Made by a program: the position numbers and the translations under genes. The notes below the pieces were generated by a model. The model saw only the letters and a program-made list of their open reading frames with translations. It did not search any database and was not told the origin of the DNA. A DNA stretch of 64,000 nt, from the IMG/VR virus record IMGVR_UViG_3300012090_000181. One strand, written 5' to 3'. This DNA is from a virus. This document shows, piece after piece, positions 1 to 64,000 of the stretch; the first letter of the stretch is position 1; every line of letters begins with the position of its first letter.

Positions 1-2
1 AA

Positions 3-509
3 GCAGAAGGCATCCTTTATGGTGGTTCCCCGCGCCTCCATAGCACACAGGTCCTGACCGACCTTGACCCACGCTGGGAGTTCCCCAAGCTTGATGACCA
101 ATCTCTGATAGTTCTGTCCGGGACCACCGGCTACCCATGGAAGGATGCTTTGAGAGACCTGGATACGACAGAGCAGGCAGAACGTGATGAAAGTGAGGTC
201 GAAGATCTGCATCGGATCGGGATCGGCTATGACGGATCCGGGCGGCTCTGGAACATCGTTCGTGTGATCGCCGATTACGGCTCTGGTGAGGAGATGGAAT
301 GGCGCATCTGGGGTGCCGACAAAGGAGCGCCGTTTGGAGAAACCTTTCATCCTGGTCTGGATTATCCGCAGATGGAAGGCGCCGAGATGGTTTTCGAGTG
401 CCGCCATCTCTCGGGTCCTGATGGCGCACCGAAGCGTCGGCCGTCCATCCGGATCGATCAGGACAACCAGGTTACCGTCGACGGCGAAAAGCTGACCGCC
501 TTGATCTGA
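3..509 (+). CDS. ILYG-tagged family B protein (5'-partial)
   Basis: Frame of ORF 150..509 is open back to base 3 and reads AEGILYGGSPR; shares IADYGxGEE with the next gene. Confidence 0.75.
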   Translation, partial: AEGILYGGSPRLHSTQVLTDLDPRWEFPKLDDQSLIVLSGTTGYPWKDALRDLDTTEQAERDESEVEDLHRIGIGYDGSGRLWNIVRVIADYGSGEEMEWRIWGADKGAPFGETFHPGLDYPQMEGAEMVFECRHLSGPDGAPKRRPSIRIDQDNQVTVDGEKLTALI

Positions 510-686
510 CCCGGCATGTTATCCTGGTTCCGGCAGAAGCCGTCAGATCACCAGATTGGCCTAGGACAGATCTGATCGCTGCTCATCCTGAAGCTTTCAG
601 GCAGTTCAATGCAAAGCCAAGTTTTCAGGTAGTTCTTGGATCTGTGCCGACTTGTCTACTTCATCGGCTTCTGCTATCATCTGCTG

Positions 687-1220
687 ATGGCATGTGATCC
701 GTCTTCTCTGGTCGTTCAAGGCCGCTCGGTGCTTTCGGCCTATGAGAGCGAAGACATTCTTTATGGCGCGTTCCCACGCCGGCAGGCCCCTATAGACGAA
801 AGCATCAGCTTATGGGATTTTCCTGCCGCTGCTCGCCGACCATTGAAGGAGTATGGCAACATCGGCTTCGCCTGGATGAACGCTCTGCATGATCTCTACC
901 AGCTCGAGGATCAAGACCTGCTGCACGGCGATGCAATCGAGATCACTCGCCTGGCCGTCGGAACCGTCGATGACAATCATCTGCTGATCGTGAACAAGCT
1001 GATCGCCGATTACGGCTTCGGCGAAGAGGTAGATCTGCAGATCGGATATGCTGCCAAGGGCGATCCAAGGATCCGGCAATCCGTCGTCTCTCACTATCCG
1101 ACCGATGCAAGCTATAAAGGTTTCACCTTCGTCTGCTCACTCGGTCAGATACACATCCTTCATGCTGATGGTGAGAACCAGGGCTATCTCGACGGTGAGT
1201 TGCTGAAACCGCTGGATTAG
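687..1220 (+). CDS. ILYG-tagged family B protein
   Basis: SEDILYG; TATCAT 675-680 then 6 nt then ATG 687; LIVNKLIADYGFGEE similar to gene 3..509. Confidence 0.75.
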   Translation: MACDPSSLVVQGRSVLSAYESEDILYGAFPRRQAPIDESISLWDFPAAARRPLKEYGNIGFAWMNALHDLYQLEDQDLLHGDAIEITRLAVGTVDDNHLLIVNKLIADYGFGEEVDLQIGYAAKGDPRIRQSVVSHYPTDASYKGFTFVCSLGQIHILHADGENQGYLDGELLKPLD

Positions 1221-1337
1221 AACTCCCTGCCAACCCCAGGATACTGAAGCATTCCTGTTCATCCGGCATCATCGAACAGGTAGCGTGACCAGGTGGCAAA
1301 ACCAGGGCCGAGCGCAGGCCGCCGCTATGCTGAAGGT

Positions 1338-1793
1338 ATGCCTCGCGGTCTGAACACGGATACAGCGGAGAATATCCTCTACGGCCGGTATTCCAGAAAA
1401 ACAGCGCTGCCGCAGCTGAAGATACCAGGAGCTACTGATCCGGCACTCTACGTGGGCACAAATTATCATCAGGCGATGCTGGATGTCTGGGATCATGAGA
1501 AGACATTGTCCTTGAGTGGGCGCGTACGCAGGATAGCCGAAGGAACGATCGCCGATGGCCGGAGACTGATCGTGGTCGACAAAGTGACCGCTCTAGGTCT
1601 TGGCAAGGATGTATCCCTCTATCATCTTTGGCATGCCGACATAGGAGCAACCGAGGTCAGACGCGAGAACGGGCACGCGGTTCATGAGGACGGCATCGAG
1701 TTGAAGATAGAAACCGCTGTCGGTGACATCAGCATCAGCGATCTCGGCTCACGGCCAAAGTTCAACGGCTTCGATCTACAGCCGTTGATCTGA
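1338..1793 (+). CDS. ILYG-tagged family B protein
   Basis: MPRG...AENILYG; TATGCT 1326-1331 then 6 nt then ATG; LIVVDKVT..YHLWxAD shared with 2567..3142. Confidence 0.8.
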   Translation: MPRGLNTDTAENILYGRYSRKTALPQLKIPGATDPALYVGTNYHQAMLDVWDHEKTLSLSGRVRRIAEGTIADGRRLIVVDKVTALGLGKDVSLYHLWHADIGATEVRRENGHAVHEDGIELKIETAVGDISISDLGSRPKFNGFDLQPLI

Positions 1794-1809
1794 AACCACC
1801 AACTGCGAC

Positions 1810-2469
1810 TTACTTTCGGCTTTTCCTACGCGGGTGTCTGCGTCTGGCCCCGAGATCGATTCGCTCGACCCAGCCCCAGGCCTGACGCGCGGAGTTGGCG
1901 TAGATCCAGCAATCGGGATCATCTTCCCACGGCTCTTTGTCTCCGAGCGGATCGAGTAGATACCAGAAGCCGGTATATTCGGTCAGCTCTTCTACCGCTG
2001 CCAACCAGTGCGGATTGGAATGGACAGTCTCCTGACGACCGTCCTCCAGGGTGGCCACGATCCTGGTCTTGCAGCCCTGCTTCTTGACCGTCTTGAAATC
2101 GATGACCTGAACCAGGCTTTCCAGACGGGAACGATTCTCGAAGATATCGCGCAGAATGACCTGCGCATCGTAAGAGGCCTCCGGGCCATGATCGCCGCGC
2201 CCACCTGGTTCGGCCGGCAGTTCCGGCTCAGCCTGAATCCACTCCTCCGGGATCTTCGAGGCCTGGGCGAACCAGCGCTGCGTCCCGCTGTACCCGATGC
2301 CGAAACCGATCTTCTCAAAATAGCCGTGGTTCAGATCGAGTTCGAGTGGATCGACCTGCCCGAGCATCGGCGAGTAGGGAGAAGGAGTGTCGATGACCAC
2401 ACCTCGATTGATGTTCAGCGGAGAGCCATAGAGTATCTGCTCCGGATCGATCAGTCGTTGCTCGCCCAT
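1810..2469 (-). CDS. ILYG-tagged family A protein
   Basis: PEQILYG; GYSGTQRWFAQASKIPEEW; LAAVEEL; TATAAT 6 nt before ATG 2469. Confidence 0.8.
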   Translation of the reverse strand: MGEQRLIDPEQILYGSPLNINRGVVIDTPSPYSPMLGQVDPLELDLNHGYFEKIGFGIGYSGTQRWFAQASKIPEEWIQAEPELPAEPGGRGDHGPEASYDAQVILRDIFENRSRLESLVQVIDFKTVKKQGCKTRIVATLEDGRQETVHSNPHWLAAVEELTEYTGFWYLLDPLGDKEPWEDDPDCWIYANSARQAWGWVERIDLGARRRHPRRKSRK

Positions 2470-2566
2470 CATCGGATTATAGCAGGTCGGCAAAATCATC
2501 AGTGTCGGCGGGAGTACCCGCCTGTTTCTACTTGCTTTCGGTACCAGCTGCTGCTATCCTCGTCTC

Positions 2567-3142
2567 ATGCCAGCTTCCCTTGACGATCTTGGTTCCGCGA
2601 TGAAGGATGGCCCTGAGCCGGTTGAACCTGGTGCCTCGGTTGAACCTGGTGCCTCGGTTGCCGGTATTCTCTATGGTCGAACTCAAGCCCGGAGCAGCAT
2701 CATCGAGCGCGTGGTCGAGAAGGTCATCGGAGCTGTTGATCCGAAAGCTTATGCGGTCACGCCATACTACCTGGCGATGCTGCATCTACTGTCGGCCGAG
2801 GAAGAACTACTGGTCGACGGTCGGGTGGAAAGGGTCATGGCCGGAACGATCTACAATGGCAATCAGCTGATCGTCGTCGATAAGGTCACACCAAAGGACA
2901 AGAGCGGCTTTATTCGCCCGCCCAGGCATTATCAAGAAATGGCAGGTCGGGTGACGCCGATAGATCCGGATACTGCATATCATCTCTGGCGAGCGGACAA
3001 AAAAGACCAGGAGGTCAGTCATATCGAGGTCACTGCTGCTGTCATCCGTGCCGACGGATCATTGCGACTGATGACCGAGGGCGGTGTCTTTCTTTCCTCC
3101 CCGGCCAGCTTCCGAGGTTTCAAGATCAGTCCGCTGACCTGA
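2567..3142 (+). CDS. ILYG-tagged family B protein
   Basis: VEPGASVEPGASVAGILYG; TATCCT 2555-2560 then 6 nt then ATG. Confidence 0.8.
   Translation: MPASLDDLGSAMKDGPEPVEPGASVEPGASVAGILYGRTQARSSIIERVVEKVIGAVDPKAYAVTPYYLAMLHLLSAEEELLVDGRVERVMAGTIYNGNQLIVVDKVTPKDKSGFIRPPRHYQEMAGRVTPIDPDTAYHLWRADKKDQEVSHIEVTAAVIRADGSLRLMTEGGVFLSSPASFRGFKISPLT
2619..2660 (+). repeat. In-frame 18-bp tandem repeat (VEPGAS x2) in tag leader
   Basis: cggttgaacctggtgcct occurs twice plus a partial third unit. Confidence 0.9.
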
Positions 3143-3189
3143 AGGCACCAATGTCTGCGCAAGTAAAAGGTTCAGTCTAGGATCTGTAT

Positions 3190-3678
3190 ATGGCACGCGG
3201 TAGCTCACATGGTTGTGATACTGGTGACGCGATCCTTTATGGTCGCCAAGAGCGCACTGCCGTGATCGAAACTATCGCGCAAGTCATCGGTGGGCATGAT
3301 ATTGAGGCTTATGCCGAGACCCCTTATCATCGACAGATGCAGATGATCCTGGAACAAGAGCAGGCTCTCGCCGGCTGGTTTCCGGTGGAGAGGATGGTCG
3401 AGGGAGTATATCGGGCCAGTCACCGTTTCGTCCAAAATCTCGCCATGGATCAGCGTCTGCTGATCATAGACAAACTGGATATTCCTACGGATACTGTTTT
3501 TGCCGTCTGGCATGCCTTACCAGACGATGCGGAGCCGACCCGAGAAGTGATCGACAGTAGCTCGATTACCGATGCCGGCTACGAGATATTCGGCGAAGAC
3601 CTGACCATCCGTTATCACACGAAGGGTGATTGGCTGACCTGTGCAGGCCGAACGGTCGAGCCATTGTTTGCCGACTGA
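3190..3678 (+). CDS. ILYG-tagged family B protein
   Basis: MARG...GDAILYG; YAETPYH and RLLIIDK match family B; TAGGAT 6 nt before ATG. Confidence 0.8.
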   Translation: MARGSSHGCDTGDAILYGRQERTAVIETIAQVIGGHDIEAYAETPYHRQMQMILEQEQALAGWFPVERMVEGVYRASHRFVQNLAMDQRLLIIDKLDIPTDTVFAVWHALPDDAEPTREVIDSSSITDAGYEIFGEDLTIRYHTKGDWLTCAGRTVEPLFAD

Positions 3679-3865
3679 AGCCACCTGTTTCTGAGGCACC
3701 CCTTGATAGTCATCCGATAGCCTGTCCGCATGACCGTAAGGCCACGTGCTGTTCTACTCCATATCGCTGGCCTATTTCATATATTATATGCGTTCAGCCA
3801 AGGTTGAAAAACATGGACAGCGAATACTCGGTCGCCGCCGTCGGCGCATGCGCTATGCTTCGATG

Positions 3866-4663
3866 ATGGACTTGATCGTGATCAAGCTGGGATCAAATAT
3901 CGTCTGTGATGCTGACGGCGAGATTAGAAGTACTGTGCTTGACACTGTCTGCGAGCAGATCGCCGAGCTGCAACAGGGCAGTAATCGCGTGATCATGGTC
4001 ACTTCGGGCGCGATCGCCCGTGGGCGGCATTCGCTCGGTATCGGTGACAAGCCTGAGGATCTGGCCAAGTTGCAGGCCTGCTCGGCCGTGGGCCAAGGTG
4101 ATCTGTTCCGACAATACGAGCGCAGACTGGCCGATCGCGGGATCTCCACAGCGCAGATACTGCTGACCTCCAGGGATCTGGAGTTGAGCATCGCCCGTGA
4201 CAACACCTCGACGACCCTGTCCCAGTTGCTGGAATGGGGCGTGGTCCCGGTCATCAACGAGAACGACACGACATCGACCGCCGAGATCACCTTCGGTGAC
4301 AATGACCTGTTGGCTGCCGAGATCAGCAGCCTGGTCAATGCCGATATGTTATTGCTGCTGACCAACACCGACGGTGTATTTTCTTCTGATCCTCGTGAGG
4401 ATCCGGATGCCGAGTTGGTTCCCAGGATCACCAGTCCAGAACAGCTGAAACAGGTCAAAGTAGGTGCTTCGCCGTCAGCTCATGGTTCCGGTGGCATGGC
4501 CAGTAAGTTGAAAGCAGCCGCACAGGCCTGCGCCGTCGGCACGGTCACGGTGATTTGCAATGGTGCTGATGAGCAGGCGATCACAGGTGCCGTCTGTGGT
4601 AAGCCCTCTGGCACGGTGATCTGCATCCCACCGGATCCTCCTTATCAAGCTCACAACCGATAA
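3866..4663 (+). CDS. proB: Glutamate 5-kinase, no PUA domain
   Basis: VIKLGSN, VTSGAI, SAVGQG, VPVINENDT, FGDNDLLAA, LLTNTDG, GSGGMASKL; TATGCT 3854-3859 then 6 nt then ATG 3866. Confidence 0.95.
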   Translation: MDLIVIKLGSNIVCDADGEIRSTVLDTVCEQIAELQQGSNRVIMVTSGAIARGRHSLGIGDKPEDLAKLQACSAVGQGDLFRQYERRLADRGISTAQILLTSRDLELSIARDNTSTTLSQLLEWGVVPVINENDTTSTAEITFGDNDLLAAEISSLVNADMLLLLTNTDGVFSSDPREDPDAELVPRITSPEQLKQVKVGASPSAHGSGGMASKLKAAAQACAVGTVTVICNGADEQAITGAVCGKPSGTVICIPPDPPYQAHNR

Positions 4664-7272: not shown

Positions 7273-7481
7273 CTTGCAAACGCTGTAACTAGATGCTTTT
7301 ACTACAAGTTAGTTGAGCATAAAGTTTCCTGGCAAAAATTCATTTTACTGTCGGGCATTATTTAGCGTCCAACTATGCATGCGCTCATCGTAGCCGCTAT
7401 CATATTAGTTTCGAGCATTTTGATTTATATCGTACGAGCAAATCTTCGAAAATAAACCGCATCGTGGATAAACTGAATCCG

Positions 7482-8033
7482 ATGCAACCTGAAGAGATCC
7501 TCTATGGCTCTGCCCGAGCAACACGTCGGAAGCTGCTTCCTTATCATGAGCGCCCTCCGCTGCCATTGGATTCTGACAACACCGGCACGGCATCTGGGTG
7601 GTTCAAGGATAAAAGCGGCTGGCTCGGAACCGATAACTGGACAGCCAGGTCTCATACGCTGCCCGCTGAGTTTCGGCCGGCTCCGGGGCGCAGACAAGCT
7701 CAGTCGGACCTGAAACTGACCCAATATCCGCTTCGGTTCTTTGATACTACCGTGGTGGATTTCATCGCTCGTGTGGGAGCGCTGCGCGGGCAAGGCCTTC
7801 AGACCGTCGAGCTGCTGTATCGTCCAGCTGCCCCTGATGTAGTGCTTTTGCATCAGTATCAAGGGGATGAGCTGCTGCTTGTGCCGCTGGGTCTGGAAGT
7901 CTCCACAGCTCATCTGGCCGCAGTCGAGACGATACGCAGTCCTGGTAGCTGGATATTCGATCCCCGGCAACAGCTACTCTATCTGAAAGAAGCCGGAGCT
8001 GGTGTCATCAGCGGCATGGTTCGCTGCCGTTGA
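7482..8033 (+). CDS. ILYG-tagged family A protein
   Basis: MQPEEILYG; SGWLGTDNWTARSHTLP; HLAAVETI..GSW. Confidence 0.8.
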   Translation: MQPEEILYGSARATRRKLLPYHERPPLPLDSDNTGTASGWFKDKSGWLGTDNWTARSHTLPAEFRPAPGRRQAQSDLKLTQYPLRFFDTTVVDFIARVGALRGQGLQTVELLYRPAAPDVVLLHQYQGDELLLVPLGLEVSTAHLAAVETIRSPGSWIFDPRQQLLYLKEAGAGVISGMVRCR

Positions 8034-10584: not shown

Positions 10585-11580
10585 CTATTGCTGAGTAGAT
10601 AATGGCTGGAAATCCAGATCTGGATCGTCCCGCAGGAGCTGGTCGGCGGCGAACACACACCGTGCTTTTGGCTTGGCCGAGGCCGCCCTCGCTCCTTTCG
10701 GATCCGCCTGCTGCTGAATGTCCTCCTCTATCAGCCCGCGTTCTTCGAACTTCTTCCAGACCCCGACGGCATCATCTGACTGGACCCCGGAAGCGTGGAG
10801 TTTCATCCCGCGCGTGCGCATCCAGATGGCCGCAGTCTCATACATCACCGTCGCCAGTCCTTGACGACGATGATCGGCCATATCGGCATGGTCCTGGACC
10901 CGCTTGCCGTCTTGATAGTGTTGATCATACTGTCCGGACGAGACACGAACATAATCGATCAACGGTTTATCGACATGGAAGTCCTTGAACCGCTCATACT
11001 CCACCGAAGCCTCCTCGCCAAGCTCCCGACGACGGGTCTCCCAAGCTTCCAGCAGCTCTTGGTCGGCTGCGTTCTCGCGCCAGGCGAGTTCATCGTCGGC
11101 GGTGCGGAAACCATCGGTCCAATGGAAAGCTTCGAGCAGTTGCTCACGACTCCATTCTTCTTGTGGTTGCAACAGTTGCGCCCGTAGCTGCCAGTTGTGT
11201 CGTCCCAGCTCCCAGACCGAATAGGCGAAAGCATCCGGAAAGTAGGTCTCTGCCAGCTCTTTCGGCACGTAGGAGATCTTCAGGTATCCTGCAGGCCCGC
11301 TGTCGGTGTGCAGCTCGACCAGGTCAACGGTCCAGGCACTCTTGATCCCATCATCGATGTCGCGGTACAGCTCCATCCTCGCCGACACGCCTTTGGAGCT
11401 GATGCGATGAACGGTCCGCTCGTGAATGCAGGCCCGCGTCCTCTCCTCTGGATCAGGTAATGGCGCATGATGTGCGCTGCGCTCATCAGAGGATGTGAAC
11501 AGTCGCGACAGCTTCGAGCTATCCCGGCTGCTCCTGGGCCTGCCTTGATAAGCTACCGTGTCTGATCTGCCTCTGGCCAT
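10585..11580 (-). CDS. MARG-start protein with C-terminal GNAT-like domain
   Basis: HRRQGLATVMYE (acetyl-CoA motif A) then ASGVQSDDAVGVW; TACTTT 6 nt before ATG 11580. Confidence 0.6.
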   Translation of the reverse strand: MARGRSDTVAYQGRPRSSRDSSKLSRLFTSSDERSAHHAPLPDPEERTRACIHERTVHRISSKGVSARMELYRDIDDGIKSAWTVDLVELHTDSGPAGYLKISYVPKELAETYFPDAFAYSVWELGRHNWQLRAQLLQPQEEWSREQLLEAFHWTDGFRTADDELAWRENAADQELLEAWETRRRELGEEASVEYERFKDFHVDKPLIDYVRVSSGQYDQHYQDGKRVQDHADMADHRRQGLATVMYETAAIWMRTRGMKLHASGVQSDDAVGVWKKFEERGLIEEDIQQQADPKGARAASAKPKARCVFAADQLLRDDPDLDFQPLSTQQ

Positions 11581-11690
11581 ATGGTAAAAGTATATCAGCA
11601 CCGACGGCAAGATCAGGATTGCCGAAGTCGCCGTCTTCGTGGGGGACAAGGTAAACAGGCAATAAAAATTGAACTCACGAAGACAGGTAA

Positions 11691-12671
11691 ATGTCGTGCG
11701 CTGTTTTCAGCGCCTACGCTTTTATCATGTCGCCTGGTACGATGAAAACGGAAATCAGTGCTCATGACGAGATCATCTCGAGTCGATCGAGCCTGGTCAA
11801 GCCGGGTGAAACCAGTGATCGGCGGGCACCGGCATTCAGGGATGCCTGTGTATTGTATCCTTCCAGTTTGTTCAACCCGAGAGAAGTCGATGAACACTTT
11901 CGTGAAGAGTATGAAGCCGCGCAGCGGGTAGGCATGCAAGTGGCTCTGGTAGATGATGCATCCTTACGACAGCCTGGAACCCTGCGTCTTGGCAGCTTCA
12001 AGGATCGCAAGTTGTTCTACCGTGGCTGGATGTTGAACGAGCAGGAGTTCTCAGGCCTGGAGCAGGCGATCAACCAGGCACACAGCCAACTATTGACCGA
12101 TACCGATGACTACCTGCAGGCGCACTATCTACCCAACTGGTATCCATTGTTCGCCGAGCATACTCCATTCAGTGTCTGGGGCGATGCCGATGATCCTGAG
12201 GAGCTCTTGGCAGAGCTTCCGGGTGGGGCCGCGATCGTCAAGGATTACGTCAAGTCGTTCAAGCATCTGTGGGATGAAGCTTGCTATATCCGTGATACCG
12301 ATGATACCGTGGATGCGCTACGCGTGATCAACAAGTTCAAGGAGCTTCGGATCGAGATCCAGGGCGGACTGATCCTACGGCACTATGAGCCGCTCGGCGA
12401 TGAGTATCGCAGTTGGTGGCGTGATGGAGAGTGTCGTCTGGTCAGCGCTCATCCTGATACACCAGAGCTACTACCTCCTGATGATCTTGACCTGGATTTC
12501 CTCCGCGACAATGTCGCCGAACTTGATGCGCGGATGGTGACCATAGACCTGGCCAGGAACACCGAGACAAACGATTACCGGATAGTGGAGATCGGAGATG
12601 GCATGGTCAGTGATCGGCCGCAGAGCCTGGACCCGGAGGTCTTTTATCAACAGTTGTTCTTGACAGATTGA
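11691..12671 (+). CDS. ATP-grasp domain protein (R2K/DUF4343-like)
   Basis: YRGWML, YLPNWY, IVKDYVKSxKHxW, EYRxWW, TIDLA, IVEIGDGMVS; start uncertain. Confidence 0.7.
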   Translation: MSCAVFSAYAFIMSPGTMKTEISAHDEIISSRSSLVKPGETSDRRAPAFRDACVLYPSSLFNPREVDEHFREEYEAAQRVGMQVALVDDASLRQPGTLRLGSFKDRKLFYRGWMLNEQEFSGLEQAINQAHSQLLTDTDDYLQAHYLPNWYPLFAEHTPFSVWGDADDPEELLAELPGGAAIVKDYVKSFKHLWDEACYIRDTDDTVDALRVINKFKELRIEIQGGLILRHYEPLGDEYRSWWRDGECRLVSAHPDTPELLPPDDLDLDFLRDNVAELDARMVTIDLARNTETNDYRIVEIGDGMVSDRPQSLDPEVFYQQLFLTD

Positions 12672-12676
12672 CCTCC

Positions 12677-13321
12677 TCAGCTGCCATCTGGCACTTCTAC
12701 GTTGACACTGCCGATGATTTCCCCATCATAGACATAGACCAGCTCCCGGTAATAGTGAAAGTCATCTTCGGTCCCATGATGATAGAACTTCCAGCTGCCA
12801 TCGGTCGTGGTCAGCGTTTCCACTGCTGCCAACTGATCAAGGCCGGCGCTGAGGGTCTCGCCTGTAAGTATCCGTCTGAATGCCCCATTCGGGCCGGCGT
12901 GGTAAGGGCCGATGCCTGCGACCCTCCGCTTGATGTCGATACCATACTTGAAGTCGGTGAAGCCGCTGCTCCCTGCCGAGTATTCATCGAGCATCAGCTC
13001 AAGGTATTCTTGTTGCATCTCGACGACGTAAAGATCGATCGCGGTCGCATCATCGCTGATCCAAGCTTGAGGCAGAGCCTCCACTTTGGCCAGCCACTCG
13101 GTTCCGACTCCACTCCATCCATGGAAGTTTTCATAAGCTCCAGTTGGTAGTCCGGCCAGTTTCAGATTGACCTTCTCTACCCAACGATTATCCGACGACG
13201 GCCATGATGCCGTCTGTTTCGACCCTGGAGAGAAATCCCCATAAAGAATGGCATCGGCGTTGGCACCAGGTTCAACCGAGGGACCAGGTTCAGAGGATGG
13301 TATCATGTCAGGTTTCTTCAT
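12677..13321 (-). CDS. ILYG-tagged family A protein
   Basis: VEPGANADAILYG; GWSGVGTEWLAKVEALPQAW; QLAAVETL..GSWKFY. Confidence 0.8.
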   Translation of the reverse strand: MKKPDMIPSSEPGPSVEPGANADAILYGDFSPGSKQTASWPSSDNRWVEKVNLKLAGLPTGAYENFHGWSGVGTEWLAKVEALPQAWISDDATAIDLYVVEMQQEYLELMLDEYSAGSSGFTDFKYGIDIKRRVAGIGPYHAGPNGAFRRILTGETLSAGLDQLAAVETLTTTDGSWKFYHHGTEDDFHYYRELVYVYDGEIIGSVNVEVPDGS

Positions 13322-13324
13322 CAG

Positions 13325-13972: not shown

Positions 13973-14096
13973 ACTCCTGAATATAGCGCTTTGCTCTTAC
14001 CCGGCTTTCTTGCTGTTTGATCATCTGCCTCATCTATCCTTGATTGTTTTTGGTGAAGCGAAGAGGCAAACGTATGCTCATGCTTCAGTATGTAAG

Positions 14097-14513
14097 ATGC
14101 CAGAAGACAAAGACCGGCCACCAGTCGTATTGCTTCCTGACATACCAGCTCGCGGTTTCATACGCCGTAGCTTCGACCGCCTGGACGCGCTGCCTCCCTC
14201 CAGCATCATCGTCGCCGGTTTCTTCGTGATCCTCTTCCTGGCCAATGCCGCCTTTGGTTATCTCAGTCAAGATGACCCAGGCAGATATTGGCCGCTTTAC
14301 GCACTATTGAACATCTGCTACTTGATATTGGTCAGTTTCTTCGTCTCCGGCATCTTGATATTGTTCTCCGATCGGGTTACATTCTGGCCGATATTCCGTA
14401 GTGTCATCGCTAAGTTTTTCATCGTCGCCAGTATGTTTTTCGTGATCGGCTGGATAATCGCATGGGCATTCTTGATACTTCTGTTCACCCTTGCCGGCCC
14501 GAACATCGGATGA
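14097..14513 (+). CDS. Membrane protein (about 3 TM)
   Basis: Hydrophobic helices in ORF 14010..14513; start uncertain. Confidence 0.6.
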   Translation: MPEDKDRPPVVLLPDIPARGFIRRSFDRLDALPPSSIIVAGFFVILFLANAAFGYLSQDDPGRYWPLYALLNICYLILVSFFVSGILILFSDRVTFWPIFRSVIAKFFIVASMFFVIGWIIAWAFLILLFTLAGPNIG

Positions 14514-15911: not shown

Positions 15912-15977
15912 AGTTTGATTTTAGGGTCCGATCGGCTGCCGGCATGATCATCATCTCGGTATCGTCACGACCGACCA

Positions 15978-20672: not shown

Positions 20673-20678
20673 CCGGTA

Positions 20679-52703: not shown

Positions 52704-53270
52704 ATGCCAGGCGTTGATTCAGATACCATCCTCTACGGTCAGACCAGTTCGCGTGGTCGGCTTCAAGGATCGGTCGGCAAGATGGATGATGAGTTGTCGC
52801 CATCGAGGACGGGAACCGTCGATGGCTATTTCGAGTATCTGGATCACTGGTTGGCCTGGTCAGGAACCGAGCGCTGGGCGGTGCTCAGGACTGATCTCCC
52901 CGCCGATCTGCTGCCGGACGCCAGACGGTCTGTACGCCTGAAGCAGCCGATCACGCGCCTGTGTGAGGTCAGATGGTTCGGCATCACCCCAAAGACGCAA
53001 CTGGATACGTGCAACGTAGAGAATGCCAAAGACATCTACGATGGGCTGAATGGATGGTGGCAACAGGTGACCTATTCCACTTCTGCCGAGCCGGCCTTGG
53101 TGCTGACCTCACACCTGCGAGCGGTCGAACACTGCTGCGGACCAGGTATCTGGCGGTATTCCAAACCTTATGATGCCCTTGGCTACGTCCAGTTCTCGGA
53201 ACCGGATAAAGTCGGGAAGGTCGTCGGCCTGATCCGCTGTGATCAGGATCATCCACCCAGACGGCGCTGA
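52704..53270 (+). CDS. ILYG-tagged family A protein
   Basis: PGVDSDTILYG; AWSGTERW..LP; HLRAVEH..GIWRY; ggagg RBS. Confidence 0.8.
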   Translation: MPGVDSDTILYGQTSSRGRLQGSVGKMDDELSPSRTGTVDGYFEYLDHWLAWSGTERWAVLRTDLPADLLPDARRSVRLKQPITRLCEVRWFGITPKTQLDTCNVENAKDIYDGLNGWWQQVTYSTSAEPALVLTSHLRAVEHCCGPGIWRYSKPYDALGYVQFSEPDKVGKVVGLIRCDQDHPPRRR

Positions 53271-54248: not shown

Positions 54249-55787
54249 TCACAGTAGGAACTGCTCATCATAATCCACCGCCGGCAGCCGATAGCTGTCG
54301 GTGATCATGTTGATCTCTTCGGTGAAGAACTCTTCATCCTCACCGACATCGGGTAGGTAGTAATCCGGAGAGCAAACAGGTGCGGGTTCCAGAGCCGCCA
54401 GAAAATCTTGATCTTCTTCTACATCGGGCAGATTATAGTCATCTGTAGGAATAGCAGCCATCTCCTGAATAAAGATCGCATCACGCAGTTCTCCTATTGT
54501 CATTTCTCGGGCGCTTTTTATACCATTACAGTATCTGCAGAGTGTCTGTAAGTTACTGATGTCATTGCTACCGCCTCTGCTGTAAGGAATGATATGATCT
54601 ATCTCCAGTTCTTGATCGTCACCGCAGCATTTACAACAGTATCTATCACGGGCGAAAACAGTTCTTCGGATCTTTCTGGGTATCTGCGGGCGATCCTCCG
54701 AGTATTTTGCGAACTCATGCTGCTGCAGTATTTTTTCGACAACACTCTGTTTTCCTTTACTGATGAACTCATTCATCTGCTCATCGGTTATTTCTCCAGA
54801 AACCCATGTCTCAGCCAGTGTACGCTTCAGAGCGGCTCCACGTCTCACCCCGAGTTCTCTCAGTCGCCGCGATTTACCCTCTGCATCCATATGAACCAGT
54901 GTATTCCAGTTCAGCTTGATGAGTGATATAGCATCACCTAGTCGTCGGCAGATCGGGCACGGGCGCACGTTTCCATCAGCATCACGTCTGTGACTCGGAG
55001 GAGTAGTCCAAGTGTGGCCGTCCTCGCATTCCCAGCGTACGGGTTTTGCGCTGTTTGGTGCTGTATTCTCCGGAGTAGCTTCGGGATGTTCTTCCATTCC
55101 TCTCCATTCAGGGACCAGGCCGGGAGTCAAGGCCGCAATGGATTCTTTTCTCGCAACTTTTCCTGGCCTGCGCTTTCGGACGAGAGCACAAGTAGGACAT
55201 CCCTGACGCTCTTTCCTGGTCCTGTCAGCAACACGGCTCCACCATGTATGTCCCTCAGCGCATTCCCACAACACGATCAAGCCGCTACTGACCGACGTAT
55301 TGCCTGGATGATTGTATTGTCTCTCAGAATCCTTGACACCTCTCCATTGTGCGGCAATCTCAGGTCCTTTCACCAGCAGGGACCTTTCCAGACTGCTGAG
55401 GCATCGTAATCGGCTTATTTCCGAGTTTCTTCTCTTGACCATCTCCGGATTGGCTTTCAAGATCTGACTAAGTTTTCGTCCACTTGCTTTACGCATCTCA
55501 GGTAAGAGTCCCCATCTGCATTCTGGGCATATTCTCCCGTGATCTCGGGTACGCTCATACACCCTACACGACCAGAGGGTGCAACACTCAGAACAACGCC
55601 AGGAGAATAGTACACTTGATCCTGATGATGTATTGCCGGGGTGATGCAAAGGATGATTTTTATCAGCTGCATAAAACTCTGCTGCTATTTCAGGGTGGCT
55701 TTCTGACAGAGGGATTGATCCTCTGCGAATGTACGGCTTTCTTGTCGAAGACTTCTTTTTCATCACAACAGTTCCAATGATCACCAT
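54249..55787 (-). CDS. Zinc-ribbon (DUF4379-like x3) plus HNH endonuclease
   Basis: Three P..A.EW..P.N...S..V.W.C..H.W...R...CP.C units; RRTVFARD..CKCCG..LEIDHIIPYSRGGSN..NLQTLC..CN..K; AT-richer DNA. Confidence 0.88.
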   Translation of the reverse strand: MVIIGTVVMKKKSSTRKPYIRRGSIPLSESHPEIAAEFYAADKNHPLHHPGNTSSGSSVLFSWRCSECCTLWSCRVYERTRDHGRICPECRWGLLPEMRKASGRKLSQILKANPEMVKRRNSEISRLRCLSSLERSLLVKGPEIAAQWRGVKDSERQYNHPGNTSVSSGLIVLWECAEGHTWWSRVADRTRKERQGCPTCALVRKRRPGKVARKESIAALTPGLVPEWRGMEEHPEATPENTAPNSAKPVRWECEDGHTWTTPPSHRRDADGNVRPCPICRRLGDAISLIKLNWNTLVHMDAEGKSRRLRELGVRRGAALKRTLAETWVSGEITDEQMNEFISKGKQSVVEKILQQHEFAKYSEDRPQIPRKIRRTVFARDRYCCKCCGDDQELEIDHIIPYSRGGSNDISNLQTLCRYCNGIKSAREMTIGELRDAIFIQEMAAIPTDDYNLPDVEEDQDFLAALEPAPVCSPDYYLPDVGEDEEFFTEEINMITDSYRLPAVDYDEQFLL

Positions 55788-57607: not shown

Positions 57608-58183
57608 TCAGATCATCAAATAGCCGAGCAGCGCCGCTGGTTCGGCTGCGTCATCGACGTAGAGCAAGAACCGATCAGGATCGCCATGGGTCGGCAGGAT
57701 ACTGGTGAGATAACGCCACTCGCCCTGGATGCCGACGGATCTTTCCAAGATCGCCATCCGGCCTGCACGGGTGACCAATGGGAGATCCTTGGCCGCTTTC
57801 TCTGCCTCCAACTCCAGCAGTCCCGGAGCGATCTCACTGCTTACCCTGACCACTGAAAGATCCTTGCGCTTGGCCTGGTCTTTCAAGAATTTTATGTGAT
57901 CTTCGGCGAGCGGAGGAGGATCAACCGGCTCGAAGTGATAATCTGCGATCAGCTGGTCAGGAATGTCAGCGCTCCGGATGCCCCAATCAGTCCCACCGGC
58001 GAAGCCTTGACAATCAGTCCAATAGCTACGGTCATCGGCCAGCGGCAGCTCATCATGAGTGATCACCGTCGGCCACCATTGCTTCGGTTCGACCAAGAGC
58101 GGAGCCGGCCGTTGTCCGGACGGTCGGGCCAGATCTCCATAAAGAATATCGTCAGGGCTGCTGATCGAAGTCCCACCTCGCAT
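57608..58183 (-). CDS. ILYG-tagged family A protein
   Basis: MRGG..PDDILYG; GFAGGTDWGIRSADIP; GEWRY..LLYVD..LLGYLM. Confidence 0.85.
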   Translation of the reverse strand: MRGGTSISSPDDILYGDLARPSGQRPAPLLVEPKQWWPTVITHDELPLADDRSYWTDCQGFAGGTDWGIRSADIPDQLIADYHFEPVDPPPLAEDHIKFLKDQAKRKDLSVVRVSSEIAPGLLELEAEKAAKDLPLVTRAGRMAILERSVGIQGEWRYLTSILPTHGDPDRFLLYVDDAAEPAALLGYLMI

Positions 58184-58303: not shown

Positions 58304-58927
58304 TCAGTCGATCATGTACCAACCGAGCAACTGGCTCTCGGAGTGGGTTCGATCGACGTAGAGCATCGTCCGGAATCCTATCTTGTCAAAATAGGTCTCA
58401 TGATATAGCCACTCAGCGGCGGTCTTGGATTGCTGCTCGATGAAAGCCAGCACATGCGTATTGGCCGAAAGGACATCCAGTTCCGCATCTGCCGATCCGG
58501 CAGGCATCACCGACCACCAAGAATCACCTGAGCCGCTTCGATGCAGTTCGGAGACGAACTCGATCGGCTTCAACCCGTCATCAGCGAATGCCGTCGTCCG
58601 AAAATGATCGACCCAACGGGTCTCATCCTCTCCTGGAGGCCGCTGCCGAGAGCTGAGCTCGCGGGCGCGGGAGACAGAGAAAACGACCGGCGGGATCTTC
58701 GCATCGTTCAGCTCAGACGGAAGAGATACGCTCCGCACACCCCAGTAGAAGTTACCGCTGTAGCCCTGATGATCGACGAAGAAAGTATGGTCATCGACCA
58801 GCAGCCTGCTCAGGTCCAGTTTCAGCGGCCAATAGTTCTGCCTGGTGACCGGGCCGGCCGACCCCACGCGCGGCCCAGAAGCACCATAGAGGATCTCCTC
58901 TGCCATCTGTGATCGCCCGCGCGCCAT
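58304..58927 (-). CDS. ILYG-tagged family A protein
   Basis: MARG..AEEILYG; GYSGNFYWGVRSVSLP; MLYVD..LLGWYM. Confidence 0.85.
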   Translation of the reverse strand: MARGRSQMAEEILYGASGPRVGSAGPVTRQNYWPLKLDLSRLLVDDHTFFVDHQGYSGNFYWGVRSVSLPSELNDAKIPPVVFSVSRARELSSRQRPPGEDETRWVDHFRTTAFADDGLKPIEFVSELHRSGSGDSWWSVMPAGSADAELDVLSANTHVLAFIEQQSKTAAEWLYHETYFDKIGFRTMLYVDRTHSESQLLGWYMID

Positions 58928-59483: not shown

Positions 59484-60032
59484 TCAAGTTGCATAGAGAC
59501 GCCAGCCGAGGAGTTGCGGCTCGGTATCGCTGCAGTCGAGATAGAGAAGATGCCGTAGTCCCTCACTATCTTTCCACATCCAGCTTCCTTCTGTCGCGCT
59601 GATCTGCTCGATCGCGGTCATGAAACTGGTGTCGGCGCGCTTACGATAGTTCGGCAATCCCTCGAAATAAAGCTCCCACTCACGAGAGCCTGCTTTCCTG
59701 ATCTCCACCTCACCGAGATCCTCGGGAGATCTTGCCATATCGATCAGCTTATCCACGAACTGATCTACTTGCGGCGAGGTATCATTCTGCCTCAGCTGCT
59801 TTCGTAGATCTTGCGGTAGCGTCCGACTCCGGGCGCCCCAGAAGGTCCAGCCACTGAAACCGAGATGATCCTGAAAATATGAGGTTCCGAACTTACGAAA
59901 AATCGAGTAGTCGATCTCATCGACCCAGTACTCCTTTGGCAGCAGGACCCTGGCCTCGGCTTTTGCCCCCCGGGCAGTAGTCACCCCGTAAAGGATATTG
60001 TCAGCCCCTGTATCTGTCTGCCCACGACCCAT
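59484..60032 (-). CDS. ILYG-tagged family A protein
   Basis: MGRG..ADNILYG; GFSGWTFWGARSRTLP; LLYLD..LLGW. Confidence 0.85.
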   Translation of the reverse strand: MGRGQTDTGADNILYGVTTARGAKAEARVLLPKEYWVDEIDYSIFRKFGTSYFQDHLGFSGWTFWGARSRTLPQDLRKQLRQNDTSPQVDQFVDKLIDMARSPEDLGEVEIRKAGSREWELYFEGLPNYRKRADTSFMTAIEQISATEGSWMWKDSEGLRHLLYLDCSDTEPQLLGWRLYAT

Positions 60033-60475: not shown

Positions 60476-61066
60476 TCAGACCATGATCCAGCCAAGCAGC
60501 TGATGCTCATCAGCCTTCGGATCAACGTAGAGGATGAACTGCTGACTACTGCTTTTCCTGAAAAGGCTCTTCCCGCTGCCAGGAGCATAGATCCATTCAC
60601 CCTCGATCATGCTCTGTTGTTCGATGAATGCCAGCAGACTTGCCTCGGCATTGAACCAGGTATCGACCACTCCTTTGATCTCCAGCCAATAGGCATCCAG
60701 GCCGATTTTATCACCCATGGTAACTCGCGGATATTCATCAGCATGAGCTGCCCGCGTCTTCAAGGCAGACAGCTGGTAAAGCAATGCCGAAGGCGGCTCG
60801 TCGACATGCATCCTGCTCATCAACTCATCAGGCAAGTACTGACTGCGAACGCCCCATGAGTGATACCCACTGTATCCTTCCAGATCCAGAGAACAGATGT
60901 TCCCACGCGTGGCTACAGTCGAGTAATCGATCACGTCCGGCCACCACTCCTTGGGCTGGACCAGTTCAGTCTGATCGCTCTTGGGCAGGCGCGAACCGGC
61001 TTCTCCATAGAGGATGTTCTCAGCTCCGGTGAGGTACTCCTGCTCAGGTCCGCGATCAAGAATCAT
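60476..61066 (-). CDS. ILYG-tagged family A protein
   Basis: AENILYG; GYSGYHSWGVRSQYLP; ILYVD..LLGWIM; TATCAT 6 nt before ATG 61066. Confidence 0.85.
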   Translation of the reverse strand: MILDRGPEQEYLTGAENILYGEAGSRLPKSDQTELVQPKEWWPDVIDYSTVATRGNICSLDLEGYSGYHSWGVRSQYLPDELMSRMHVDEPPSALLYQLSALKTRAAHADEYPRVTMGDKIGLDAYWLEIKGVVDTWFNAEASLLAFIEQQSMIEGEWIYAPGSGKSLFRKSSSQQFILYVDPKADEHQLLGWIMV

Positions 61067-61206
61067 CAACTGATGATAGCAGATCGTACCGTATTCTTGA
61101 CCTTGACAAGGTGCGGTTGCAACTGATCGGCGTGTTGCCGCAGTGCGTGCAATGTCAGTCATGGCCCGATCAGGTGCAGTTTCCGGCCGGGGATTACCAT
61201 CAGAGT

Positions 61207-61650
61207 ATGACCTGCGATCCCGGCGGCGTACCGAAGACGAAAAGATTACAAGCAAAACCGATCTCGAAACTGAGCCGGCGCGAGCTCGCCGAATGTGAGC
61301 AGCTCAGCTTTCAAGATCATGGTGAGATGAGCTATCACCTGCATGATGTCGCCGCCGGTAATCGAGACGGCATCACATTGTTCATCCAAGATGATGCAGG
61401 ATATATCATCGCCTGGGCATTGCTCTGCGATCTACATGATCGAAAACTGGCCTCGGCTGTACCAGAAGCGCAGAGTTCTCAACAGCGGGCCTTCTTCTAT
61501 GTTGCTCCCGAACATCGACGGAGAGGCCTGGGAAAGCGTTTGATGGCGGCGGTCTTGCGTCGTGATGATCATGCCCGGGTCAAATCATGGGATGCTGCCA
61601 GCGAGGCATTCTTTGATCGCTATCCTGAGCTTGATCACATTGGCTTGTGA
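61207..61650 (+). CDS. GNAT family N-acetyltransferase
   Basis: FFYVAPEHRRRGLGKRLM, ASEAFF; TACCAT 6 nt before ATG 61207. Confidence 0.8.
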   Translation: MTCDPGGVPKTKRLQAKPISKLSRRELAECEQLSFQDHGEMSYHLHDVAAGNRDGITLFIQDDAGYIIAWALLCDLHDRKLASAVPEAQSSQQRAFFYVAPEHRRRGLGKRLMAAVLRRDDHARVKSWDAASEAFFDRYPELDHIGL

Positions 61651-61757
61651 GCGCGCCGGCCAGTATAAAATACTCCTGTAAGAGGATCATCTGAGAACTG
61701 TGTCCTTCAGCTTGATCACCTTTCTCTCATGCTCAAACGCGCCGGCAACAGGAGCAG

Positions 61758-62786
61758 ATGATTACCATCGGACAGACGCTCATGATCGAAGCCATCGGAC
61801 TGAAGAAAACCTATGAACAGAAGGTCGCGGTCGATGACCTGTCTTTTGGGGTCCGACCCGGGATCGTCACCGGCTTTCTCGGTCCGAACGGGGCCGGTAA
61901 ATCGACGACCATGCGGCTCCTGCTCGGCCTGGATCGCCCTGATGTTGGACAGGCCTTGATCAACGGTAGGCCTTACCGCGAGCTTGAGGCCCCATTGTCT
62001 GAAGTCGGGGCCTTGCTGGAGGCCAAGGCTGTTCATCCGGGGCGCAGCGCCCGTGCTCATCTGATCGCCCTGGCGCGGACCCAGGGCATAGCCAAGTCCA
62101 GAGTGGACGAAGTTCTACAGTTGGTCGGCATAGAAGCAGTGGCCTCAGAAGCCGTCGGCAGCTTCTCCCTCGGTATGGGCCAACGGCTCGGGATCGCTGT
62201 CGCCCTGCTCGGCGATCCGCAGGTGGTCATGCTTGACGAGCCGATCAACGGTCTTGACGCCGAAGGCATCCACTGGGTTCGCAGCCTGCTCAGATACCTT
62301 GCCGGCGAAGGACGAACTGTCTTCGTCAGCTCACATGTGATGAGCGAGATGGCGATAACCGCCGATCACCTGATCGTCATCGGCCAAGGCCGGCTGATCG
62401 CCGACACCAGTGTCTCCGATTTCATCGACGCTGCCGGGGTCCGTTCGGTCCGGGTTCGCTCTCCGCAGTTGAGCGAGCTACGAGCAAAGCTTATCGCCGC
62501 CGGCGGAAGCGTAGCGGAGAGTACCGGCTCTGATGATGCCGGCTTGTCCGTCACCGGATTGAGTATCGAAGCCATCGGCGAGCTCGCCGCCGCTGCGGGA
62601 CTGGTCTTGCATGAGCTGACAGAAATACAGGCTTCCCTTGAGGAAGCGTTCATGGAGCAGACCGGTCATGCGGTCGATTATCAGACCGGTAGCCAAGTCG
62701 GCTCGGTGGGTGCATCTGCTTTCGATGCATCTGATCACCGGCCCGAGCCGACGATCCTGGCCGACGGCGAAAGGGAGGATGGATGA
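61758..62786 (+). CDS. ABC transporter ATP-binding protein (drug/lantibiotic exporter type)
   Basis: GPNGAGKST, FSLGMGQRLG, MLDEP, SSH. Confidence 0.95.
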   Translation: MITIGQTLMIEAIGLKKTYEQKVAVDDLSFGVRPGIVTGFLGPNGAGKSTTMRLLLGLDRPDVGQALINGRPYRELEAPLSEVGALLEAKAVHPGRSARAHLIALARTQGIAKSRVDEVLQLVGIEAVASEAVGSFSLGMGQRLGIAVALLGDPQVVMLDEPINGLDAEGIHWVRSLLRYLAGEGRTVFVSSHVMSEMAITADHLIVIGQGRLIADTSVSDFIDAAGVRSVRVRSPQLSELRAKLIAAGGSVAESTGSDDAGLSVTGLSIEAIGELAAAAGLVLHELTEIQASLEEAFMEQTGHAVDYQTGSQVGSVGASAFDASDHRPEPTILADGEREDG

Positions 62787-63604
62787 AACAGCGGACGAGA
62801 ACAGCAGGCGCATCGGCGCGGCCGCAGCCCAAGGTGACCCAATGGCGGGTCATCTGCTCGGAGTGGGGCAAACTACTCTCGGTCAGATCGACCAAATGGA
62901 CGATGGTCATCTCCCTGACCTTGATCATCGGTTTCGGCATCGCCATCAGCGCGATCTTCAGTGCTCAATGGAACAGCTTGTCGCAAGCACAACAGATGAG
63001 CTACGACCCACTGGACATCGGCCTGGGCGGGATCGGGCTGGCGCAGCTGTCGATCAGTGTGCTCGGCGTGTTGGCGATCAGCTCCGAATACTCGACAGGT
63101 ATGATCCGAGCCGATTTTCTGGCCGTGCCGAAAAGATTACCGATCCTCTGGGGCAAGGCTCTGGCCTTCTCCGGTCTGGTCCTGGCGGCGACGATCCCCT
63201 CGGTCTTGATCGCCTTCTTCGCCAGCCAGAAGATCCTTTCAGCCCACGGCAGCTACTCGATCGAAGATACTCATGCGCTGAGGGTCATCGTAGGCAGCAT
63301 CCTGTTCTTGCCGTTGATCGGTGTCTTCAGCCTGGCCGTCGCCGCGATCATCCGTAGTACCGCCGGCAGCATCGCCACCTTGTTCGGATTGTTCTTCGTC
63401 GGCCCGCCGGTGCTGAGCCTACTGCCTGGAGATCTCGGGGAGATCATCCCGAAGTTCTTCCCGGGCGATGCCGCAGCCAGCATGTACTCCAGCCATATCT
63501 CCGGCAACGCGCTATCTCCGATCTGGGGAGGCTTGGTCCTCTGCGGATATATCTGTATCTCCTTGACAATAGCGGCGATACTGCTGCTACGCCGTGATGC
63601 CTGA
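62783..63604 (+). CDS. ABC transporter permease
   Basis: Six TM; SEYSTGMIR..AVPKR; ATGA overlap with the ATPase gene. Confidence 0.9.
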   Translation: MKQRTRTAGASARPQPKVTQWRVICSEWGKLLSVRSTKWTMVISLTLIIGFGIAISAIFSAQWNSLSQAQQMSYDPLDIGLGGIGLAQLSISVLGVLAISSEYSTGMIRADFLAVPKRLPILWGKALAFSGLVLAATIPSVLIAFFASQKILSAHGSYSIEDTHALRVIVGSILFLPLIGVFSLAVAAIIRSTAGSIATLFGLFFVGPPVLSLLPGDLGEIIPKFFPGDAAASMYSSHISGNALSPIWGGLVLCGYICISLTIAAILLLRRDA

Positions 63605-63660
63605 AGACCCGATCTCGGCGAGAAGGTACGGAGCCGGAGCGTTGATGTATTATCATCGAC

Positions 63661-63816
63661 ATGATGCCGGCGATGAAGATCTTCAGCAAACATGACGATA
63701 CGAAGCGCAAGATCCGTAGCAGACTACAGGAAGGTGCTCTGAGCGCGCTGCGTACCCCGGTCAATCCACCGGCTCCGACCCGACTGGTTCCCCTGGACAA
63801 GGATCGGGACCGATGA
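63661..63816 (+). CDS. Possible 51-aa peptide
   Basis: TATTAT 7 nt before ATG 63661; below ORF-track length cutoff. Confidence 0.3.
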   Translation: MMPAMKIFSKHDDTKRKIRSRLQEGALSALRTPVNPPAPTRLVPLDKDRDR

Positions 63817-64000
63817 AAGTTTCAGCTCGGCGGCACTCAGAAGGGCGGCGCTCGCGGACCGGGAATAGTTTGGATGTCTACGGTACGGTGGTCGGTGCCG
63901 GCAAGCCGCTCCCCGCAGATCAGCTGCAACCGATGCTCATCGCTGTCCTGCAGGCCGGGAGCCGCCAGCGTCGATCCAGTTGAAAATTGAAGTCAATCAC

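Follow-up and report, generated by a model that had tools for sequence, protein, structure and literature searches.

The DNA analysed here, a stretch of 64,000 nucleotides from the IMG/VR virus record IMGVR_UViG_3300012090_000181 (the window), carries 91 genes according to a codon-usage caller of open reading frames (ORFs) and 92 in a second run, and these cover 85% of its length. Most of the genes belong to no recognised family. Between them lie single housekeeping genes, such as cysS, proB and the gene of ribonuclease (RNase) Z, and arrays of paralogs, foremost those of a family that we call A, whose products carry a short N-terminal motif with the letters ILYG (the tag). An earlier note on the window, made from the sequence alone, had taken it for the accessory region of a very large element. 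The size was rightly foreseen, the window being a 100% match to part of a metagenome contig of 1,102,643 bp. However, rather than being a local accessory region, the window is representative of a replicon that measures at least 1.10 Mb: the same architecture, rich in tagged proteins, in ORFs without known relatives (ORFans) and in leaderless starts, was found at every place sampled between 457 and 1,036 kb, and genes of essential type (secA, cysS, tyrS and that of RNase Z) lie inside it.

The window corresponds, in the same orientation, to bases 841,014-905,013 of the contig, which is k141_311054 of ENA ERZ27241870 (BLASTN of the window against the ENA record, 100% identity over 21,359 nt). 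The product of cysS is 100% identical to the database protein P0001, whose longest contig is of 1.10 Mb. JGI has these proteins too, on a contig of 1,102,766 bp, and the cysS protein is encoded as well by a 53-kb Logan contig (run SRR6448512), whose assembly is concordant base for base with that of ENA. We checked 30 family-A proteins encoded outside the window, 11 of which are on the same contig, and looked up their loci of 20 kb. Together with the window and the 9.3 kb immediately upstream of it, this gave a sample of 245 kb (22% of the contig) spread between 457 and 1,036 kb, the additional loci being at 457-478, 481-502, 546-567, 733-753, 793-820, 926-947, 971-991 and 1,015-1,036 kb of the record. 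The sampled loci are named window, L003, L004, L006-L009, L036-L038 and L049. The guanine-plus-cytosine (GC) content is 55.5% in the window and 55-57% in the sampled contig, uniform over 580 kb, hence without the boundary of a compositional island. The GC skew is weakly negative at all sampled places and does not switch.

The independent gene calls of ENA and JGI are in close agreement with ours over the stretch compared. Across the sampled contig the proteins have a mean length of 206 amino acids (median 182), versus a mean of 372 for control genes of Solirubrobacterales (the controls are 100 genes from other loci of this order). The coding strand switches 36 times among the 92 window genes. 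In the whole sample, 57% of neighbouring genes are on the same strand, and 43 of 188 same-strand pairs are at most 20 bp apart. Since the same caller finds 56-66% same-strand pairs in a normal Solirubrobacterales chromosome, strand switching alone is a weak discriminator. A Pfam match at E<=1e-3 was obtained for about 14 of the 91 window proteins (about 15%) and, from precomputed tables, for about 65 of the roughly 358 genes called across the sample (18%), leaving 82% without one. These counts bear out the description given in the earlier note, which had listed about 95 mostly short genes, frequent strand switches, almost no operons, a majority of unrecognised genes and several expanded families (BLAST clusters of 23, 3, 2 and 2 members). 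The scattered auxiliary enzymes that it had also listed are present, but several of them are instead true housekeeping genes (cysS, proB, the gene of RNase Z and also that of DNA polymerase IV).

Housekeeping genes are scattered singly through the sample: secA, cysS, proB, dinB, the gene of RNase Z (rnz), tyrS, clpP, rpoZ and nadA. The genes of tyrosyl-tRNA synthetase (TyrRS), ClpP, RpoZ and NadA are in L037. Also scattered are a CysH-type 3'-phosphoadenosine 5'-phosphosulfate (PAPS) reductase and Ham1 (L004/L008), an enzyme of MoeB/ThiF type, peptidases of HtpX-like, M16 and M50 types, MscS, transporters and a sulfatase. No housekeeping gene is duplicated within the sample, and secA, cysS, rnz and proB pass or match NCBIfam equivalog models, with SecA (1,012 amino acids) reaching 1013 bits against an equivalog cut-off of 814. 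The relatives of SecA among 185,579 species genomes are mostly Solirubrobacterales, and the tree joins SecA to them with a support of 100. A placement of SecA nested inside this order, as opposed to sister to it, is not established, since the approximately unbiased (AU) test gives p=0.26 for the sister position. The best non-self matches of cysteinyl-tRNA synthetase (CysRS) are in metagenome-assembled genomes of Solirubrobacterales (58-61% identity), and TyrRS and ClpP are, respectively, 58-60% and 65-68% identical to the orthologs of five Solirubrobacterales genomes. The closest complete chromosome of the order (G003, 2.5 Mb, 69.5% GC) has 14 ortholog-like matches to the sampled genes, at 47-71% identity, none of them near-identical. 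This spread has the look of a single ancient split and not of gene-by-gene capture.

A Shine-Dalgarno-like site precedes 16 of the 91 window genes. The distance from the end of a TANNNT hexamer to the start codon is exactly 6 nt in 26 of 90 window genes and 7 nt in a further 6, where the background is about 1 gene for any one offset. In the sampled loci taken together, 198 + 60 sites form this peak, while control offsets have about 20 each. When genes rather than sites are counted, such a start is present in 227 of 343 (66%), versus 4-10% at control offsets, a net share of about 60%. The sites share the consensus T-G-c-T-A-t-n-a-T, an extended -10 box that lies 6 nt from the ATG, with a base other than A at -1 and no clear -35 box. 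The same box is shared by cysS (TATCAT, 6 nt upstream of ATG), rnz (TAGACT, also 6 nt upstream of ATG), clpP, rpoZ, dinB and genes of no known function. Loci of Solirubrobacterales have the same peak at -12 to -7, weaker, in about 12% of the genes. A distance of 6-7 nt between the -10 box and the start codon is what leaderless transcripts of Actinobacteria show (PMC3160421, PMC3898074). The leaderless share ranges between 2 and 30% in 86 Actinobacteria, with a maximum of 46% among 953 genomes (PMC3160421), which the apparent share of about 60% found here exceeds. These results show that the replicon uses bacterial expression signals. A holoenzyme of sigma-70 type would start transcription at the start codon itself and produce leaderless, mostly monocistronic mRNAs, which would account for genes being oriented almost at random, for Shine-Dalgarno sites being rare and for the small number of operons.

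The largest BLAST cluster of the window has 23 paralogs, all of which carry the N-terminal signature [DE]-x-I-L-Y-G, frequently preceded by M-[AG]-R-G. The more general form [IVL]-L-[YF]-G occurs within the first 70 residues of 102 of 343 sampled proteins (30%), versus 1 of 100 controls, and in the tagged proteins the motif is 15 times commoner in these 70 residues than farther along the chain. The families expand through local tandem duplication. When 1.84 billion representative proteins were searched exhaustively with the family-A profile, 125 matched, 18 in the window and 107 outside it, and about half of the latter are on small contigs of JGI, ENA or Logan. Family A has no match in 50,697 phage records of INPHARED or in 72,556 plasmid records of PLSDB, and three different queries gave none in IMG/VR. 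An exact 40-mer of the window did not occur in viral (IMG/VR), genome or JGI metagenome collections, a negative to which we attach no weight. Its AlphaFold model, built from 124 sequences, is of fair confidence, with a predicted local distance difference test (pLDDT) score of 77 and a predicted template modelling (pTM) score of 0.73, and gives no significant Foldseek match in PDB or BFVD. A clamp-like fold was considered but found no support, as the best VIA-align match, to sliding-clamp domains (Z 4.4, root-mean-square deviation 4.5, 129 residues aligned), is under the background of the tool. The predicted fold is uninformative on the type of replicon. Within the window, a 54-nt stretch is 80% complementary between positions 2623-2676 and 13239-13292, which are the tag-encoding 5' ends of two genes of different families (a VEPG... 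leader followed by ILYG), and the leader at 2619-2660 is a perfect 18-bp tandem repeat. The sequences suggest that tag-encoding DNA has been exchanged or duplicated between genes. The N-terminal peptide, ...[DE]-x-[IV]-L-[YF]-G, could act as an address or docking label for a machine, which we have not found.

As the earlier note had remarked for capsid, terminase, rep, par, conjugation and ribosomal genes, the hallmarks of known replicon types are lacking. Capsid, terminase, portal, Rep, Par, relaxase and ribosomal proteins are absent among the top 25 families of each window census with Pfam, PHROGs and NCBIfam. No capsid, portal, terminase or tail protein was matched by PHROGs or Pfam in the window or among the ten largest proteins of no known family, nor in the Pfam tables of nine further loci, in searches that were not aimed at divergent folds. 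Phage, plasmid, integrase and transposase families are missing among about 350 sampled genes, and the 245-kb sample has no rep, par, relaxase, type IV secretion system (T4SS) or transfer gene, no RNA polymerase core subunit and no replication gene. PADLOC returned weak or generic matches only. A giant tailed phage of more than 1 Mb, in which ILYG would be a capsid- or tail-targeting signal, is very unlikely in our view. ORFans, short genes, HNH, methyltransferases, RNA ligases, NADAR, Macro and a uniform promoter do look phage-like. However, structural or replication genes would be expected in any random fifth of a phage genome, whereas the roughly 350 genes contain no family of capsid, portal, terminase, tail, DNA polymerase, primase or helicase. 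The 245 kb are also free of tRNA genes, of which huge phages usually have many, long co-directional modules are missing, SecA, RpoZ, MscS, transporters and sulfatase are cellular functions, and no relative was found in the 50,697 phage records or IMG/VR. Such a phage would be the largest known, 1.5 times the size of the largest reported, of 735 kb (PMC7162821).

Hardly less improbable, taken together, are a classical megaplasmid, chromid or integrative element, a mis-assembled chimera and a eukaryotic giant virus. Sizes above 1 Mb are possible for megaplasmids, and a few core genes are carried by chromids. Known megaplasmids, however, have mostly recognisable genes, whereas 82% of the sampled genes have no Pfam match, rep, par, relaxase, T4SS, integrase and transposase genes are missing from the sample, and the 72,556 plasmid records gave no match. 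A chimera is unlikely given the concordance of the Logan and ENA assemblies and the constancy of GC content, promoter motif and tag frequency along 580 kb. The eukaryotic virus is ruled out by the bacterial extended -10 and leaderless signals and by the bacterial SecA, RpoZ and ClpP. Giant phage and classical megaplasmid are thus disfavoured.

We tentatively favour, at a little less than an even chance, the reading that the replicon is the chromosome of an undescribed, fast-evolving lineage related to Thermoleophilia (Solirubrobacterales-like Actinomycetota). In such a genome, housekeeping genes would be diluted among the short, fast-evolving, lineage-specific genes of the cell's own chromosome, and secA, cysS, tyrS, rnz, clpP, rpoZ, proB, nadA and cysH would be its own vertically inherited copies. 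A chromosome is favoured because megabase contigs of metagenomes are, by prior, chromosomes, because the housekeeping genes are unduplicated, complete, of one coherent ancestry and similarly diverged, and because they share their promoter, of a geometry known in Actinobacteria, with the other genes. It is also favoured by the uniform GC content, by the absence of phage, plasmid, integrase and transposase families among the sampled genes, and by the leftward rise of recognisable genes. The share of genes with a Pfam match is 38-39% at 457-502 kb versus 0-19% further right, and none of the nine family-A genes that could be placed independently lies in the first 457 kb; hence the left part of the contig may be more core-like. 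A last argument comes from a contig of another metagenome, JGI Ga0190275_10001889 (L050). It has 15.3 kb, 48.7% GC, seven MGRG...ILYG proteins, homologs (35-74% identical) of genes that are dispersed on the big contig, and a lone isocitrate/isopropylmalate dehydrogenase. Its shared features point to a small divergent clade of replicons with the same architecture, and the fact that its GC content differs yet its gene mix is the same speaks for a chromosome.

A serious competitor, to which we attach somewhat more than one chance in three, is a bacterial extrachromosomal element, about 1.1 Mb long, of a Solirubrobacterales-like soil host, neither plasmid nor virus by known markers and comparable to the Borgs, giant linear elements of Methanoperedens archaea of about 1 Mb that encode primarily hypothetical proteins and have a GC content about 10 points below that of the host (PMC9605863). 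It would be the first bacterial counterpart of these elements and would surpass every known phage in size. More than 80% of its genes would be without known function, about a third of its proteins would be addressed by ILYG, and it would carry its own diverged secA, aminoacyl-tRNA synthetases, clpP and rpoZ under a uniform leaderless promoter. The size, the hypothetical proteins, the lower GC content and the lack of partition, conjugation, rRNA and viral genes parallel the description of Borgs (PMC9605863). In addition, the housekeeping genes branch beside the presumed host lineage, one uniform promoter serves about 60% of the genes, as in many viruses, and two independent assemblies end within 123 bp of the same length, as expected of a complete replicon. 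On the other hand, at least 11 housekeeping-type genes in 22% of the contig, unduplicated, at 47-71% identity and none of recent look, speak against such an element. Cellular markers are depleted in this part of the contig and yet present (secA, cysS, tyrS, rnz, clpP, rpoZ). Among the hallmarks of Borgs, which are linear with long inverted terminal repeats, pervasive perfect tandem repeats are lacking in the window (it has two small ones only) and the genes are not on one strand per replichore, and the 48.7% GC of L050 is easier to explain for a cellular lineage.

The chromosome and the Borg-like element are nearly tied. A number of observations weigh against the former. With tblastn at E<=1e-5, 31 of 343 sampled genes (9%) match the G003 chromosome, versus 65 of 100 controls; the matches are scattered along that chromosome without conserved gene order, and secA has no neighbour in common with the secA loci of its relatives. 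The branch of SecA has a length of 1.05-1.19 substitutions per site, some 2-3 times what its relatives measure from root to tip, and the terminal branch of CysRS is of 0.76, versus a median of 0.11. The GC content of 55-57% is about 10-12 points below that of the relatives (64-71%), and long branches and lower GC are each usual in genes that viruses or extrachromosomal elements have captured. No tRNA, rRNA or other Rfam RNA was found in the window or the 245-kb sample, and no ribosomal protein in the sample. Of the bac120 markers, the 245 kb contain only about 2 (secA and cysS). Together with the absence of tRNA genes, this density is compatible with a chromosome only in a large genome, of some 5-9 Mb or more. 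The orphan methyltransferases, with RtcB, Rnl1, a second ligase, a kinase resembling polynucleotide kinase (PNK), Macro and NADAR, form a set that is more like that of mobile elements. Family A was not found in 406 (5 + 401) genomes of the class Thermoleophilia, in a search run without a positive control. Every locus outside the window was reached through a family-A gene, which biases the sample towards regions bearing this family. Finally, we know of no cellular genome that looks like this one, with 9% shared genes and about 18% Pfam matches. The low share of homologs in the nearest chromosome, the long SecA and CysRS branches, the many orphan methyltransferases and RNA-repair genes, and the 245 kb without tRNA or ribosomal genes count at the same time in favour of the Borg-like element.

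The annotated features of the window, and the methyltransferase-type genes of the other loci, are collected in Table 1.

Table 1. Positions of annotated features (window coordinates, unless preceded by the name of another sampled locus)
Feature	Position	Strand	Evidence
Family-B small paralogs, ILYG-tagged	3-509, 636-1220, 1293-1793, 2567-3142, 3190-3678	+	self-BLAST cluster, alignment
Family-A gene within the family-B array (3..3678)	1810-2499	-	self-BLAST cluster
proB, glutamate 5-kinase domain	3788-4663	+	TIGR01027 276 bits vs cut-off 186; Pfam AA_kinase 2.4e-45
AT-richer island, at least 6 paralogous small hydrophobic proteins of ~60-90 amino acids	4980-7460	+	sequence reading; direct repeat family D1
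Family-A member	7464-8033		self-BLAST, alignment
Tagged gene, no known function	10585-11649	-	43-48% identical to L050 gene (BLASTP 48% over 234 amino acids; alignment A3)
R2K-clade ATP-grasp protein	11691-12671	+	Pfam R2K_3 8.1e-28
Main family-A array, twelve members of ~200 amino acids (ten minus; plus-strand one 20037-20672), two unrelated genes between	12677-21365		
MscS-type mechanosensitive channel	25064-26035	+	Pfam MS_channel_2nd 2.8e-11
Ribonuclease Z, tRNA 3' processing	31130-32092	+	TIGR02651 6.2e-87; 57% identical to G003 ortholog
cysS, cysteine-tRNA ligase, 452 amino acids	34132-35490	-	TIGR00435 406 bits vs 340
NADAR-domain protein	39063-39575	+	Pfam NADAR 5.5e-23
BRCT-domain protein	39687-40514	+	Pfam BRCT 1.8e-6
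dinB, DNA polymerase IV	42283-43329	-	Pfam IMS, IMS_C, IMS_HHH_1; NF002677 273 bits vs 256; 47% identical to G003 homolog
Three-member family, ~320-340 amino acids, function not recognised	45373-46332, 46492-47484, 49712-50728	+	self-BLAST
Tagged gene of 321 amino acids among the three-member family	48625-49590	-	
Isochorismatase-family hydrolase, N-terminal extension of ~100 amino acids	51861-52685	+	Pfam Isochorismatase 7.8e-29, residues 101-272
Family-A member	52704-53270		self-BLAST, alignment
HNH endonuclease with three DUF4379 zinc-finger units	54249-55787	-	Pfam; many PHROGs HNH families
Second family-A array	57608-58183, 58304-58927, 59484-60032, 60476-61255	-	self-BLAST
ABC-transporter ATPase	61758-62786	+	Pfam ABC_tran 2.5e-26
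Gene downstream of the ABC ATPase	62783-63604	+	4-nt overlap; one of few operon-like pairs
Methyltransferase-type genes	L009:7582-8676, L038:3397-4368, L038:10753-11472, L038:16541-18079, L037:15725-16807		

In the window, proB is solitary, without an adjacent proA, and is 54% identical to its G003 homolog. Next to it, the island of small hydrophobic proteins falls in a 4-8 kb bin of 47.5% GC (53-58% in the other bins of the window), and a 58-nt repeat is common to three of the small ORFs. The RNase Z gene was also considered as an anti-Pycsar metallo-beta-lactamase (Apyc1), a candidate that was rejected at 20 bits for a cut-off of 50 and in view of the TIGR02651 match. A perfect 50-bp tandem duplication is present at 35907-36006, within a gene of 157 amino acids (35586-36059); since the unit is not divisible by three, this recent duplication altered the reading frame at the 3' end of the gene. 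The tagged gene starting at 10585 has no Pfam or PHROGs match. The genes starting at 45373, 49712 and 48625 have no Pfam match at E<=0.01, so that the MORN protein formerly read into the last of them found no support. The HNH gene has a codon score of 12 for 512 amino acids, far under its neighbours, and may be a recent mobile arrival.

Elsewhere on the contig, an RNA-repair cluster in L036 (457-478 kb) comprises a ligase of T4 Rnl1 type, a second RNA ligase, a PNK-like AAA_33 kinase, Macro and an NT5C nucleotidase, and RtcB lies farther along (L049:18920-20371). The five DNA methyltransferase-type genes in 245 kb are two C5, one N4/N6, one Dam-type and one Eco57I-type, with no restriction partner evident in the Pfam tables. 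A gene at about 811 kb of the record (L004:11209-12339, 376 amino acids), a candidate phenylalanyl-tRNA synthetase (PheRS), is rather the PheS-related mystery ligase SrmL of NCBIfam (474 bits vs 300). It has a class II catalytic core and an FDX-ACB-like end, as does mitochondrial PheRS, and its start is of the Shine-Dalgarno type and not leaderless. A protein of 139 amino acids with a lysine-rich tail and no Pfam match is encoded at L036:8425-8844 (about 466 kb), at L050:5143-5517 and in the loci L179 and L180. It has 1,596 metagenome homologs, 54-74% identical (alignment A4), and in one of the two genomes of the class Thermoleophilia that encode it, it adjoins an RtcB-like gene. We discarded it as a lineage marker, since its presence in 2 of 201 genomes of the class is uninformative on the type of replicon.

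Either of the two leading readings is unusual. If the replicon is a chromosome, nine in ten of its genes are without a detectable relative in the nearest order and about 60% of its mRNAs are apparently leaderless, while hundreds of proteins bearing one N-terminal label would imply that sorting or docking is done by a large system, as yet undescribed, and that genes are born in an unusual way. If it is extrachromosomal, giant Borg-like elements are not restricted to methane-oxidising archaea and are present in common soil actinobacteria. Whichever reading holds, two sequence barcodes are available, the promoter motif and the tag, with which this genome and its relatives can be retrieved from metagenomes.

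We found no literature on the sample accessions or on comparable elements in Solirubrobacterales, and the closest comparisons are with replicons of other kinds. Megaplasmids, chromids and the accessory arms of the linear Streptomyces chromosomes are megabase-scale, poor in core genes and rich in duplicating, lineage-specific families, as is the replicon studied here. They consist mostly of recognisable families and mobile elements, and are without essential genes. Here, in contrast, secA, cysS and rnz lie deep in a zone rich in ORFans, and no transposase was seen in the sample. Huge phages of more than 200 kb (PMC7162821) share with this replicon a high fraction of ORFans, aminoacyl-tRNA synthetases, methyltransferases and RNA-repair enzymes, whereas the 22% of the contig sampled here have neither a structural or replication module nor a tRNA, and have genes of the cellular envelope.

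The likeness to Borgs extends to a size of about 1 Mb, a mostly hypothetical gene content, a GC content below that of related cells, the lack of rRNA, plasmid and viral hallmark genes in the part examined, and housekeeping-type genes that branch beside a cellular lineage. Unlike Borgs, the replicon is bacterial, has a near-random gene orientation and more housekeeping genes per kb, is without pervasive perfect tandem repeats, and has a proteome-wide N-terminal tag and uniform leaderless promoters. From the chromosomes of Mycobacterium and Streptomyces (PMC3898074, PMC3160421) it differs by its leaderless share of about 60%, by the 9% of genes shared with the nearest relative, by genes of about half the usual length and by the lack of synteny. 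It resembles them in the TANNNT -10 box about 6-7 nt before the start codon, in the small number of Shine-Dalgarno sites and in its housekeeping genes, which are of actinobacterial (Thermoleophilia) type.

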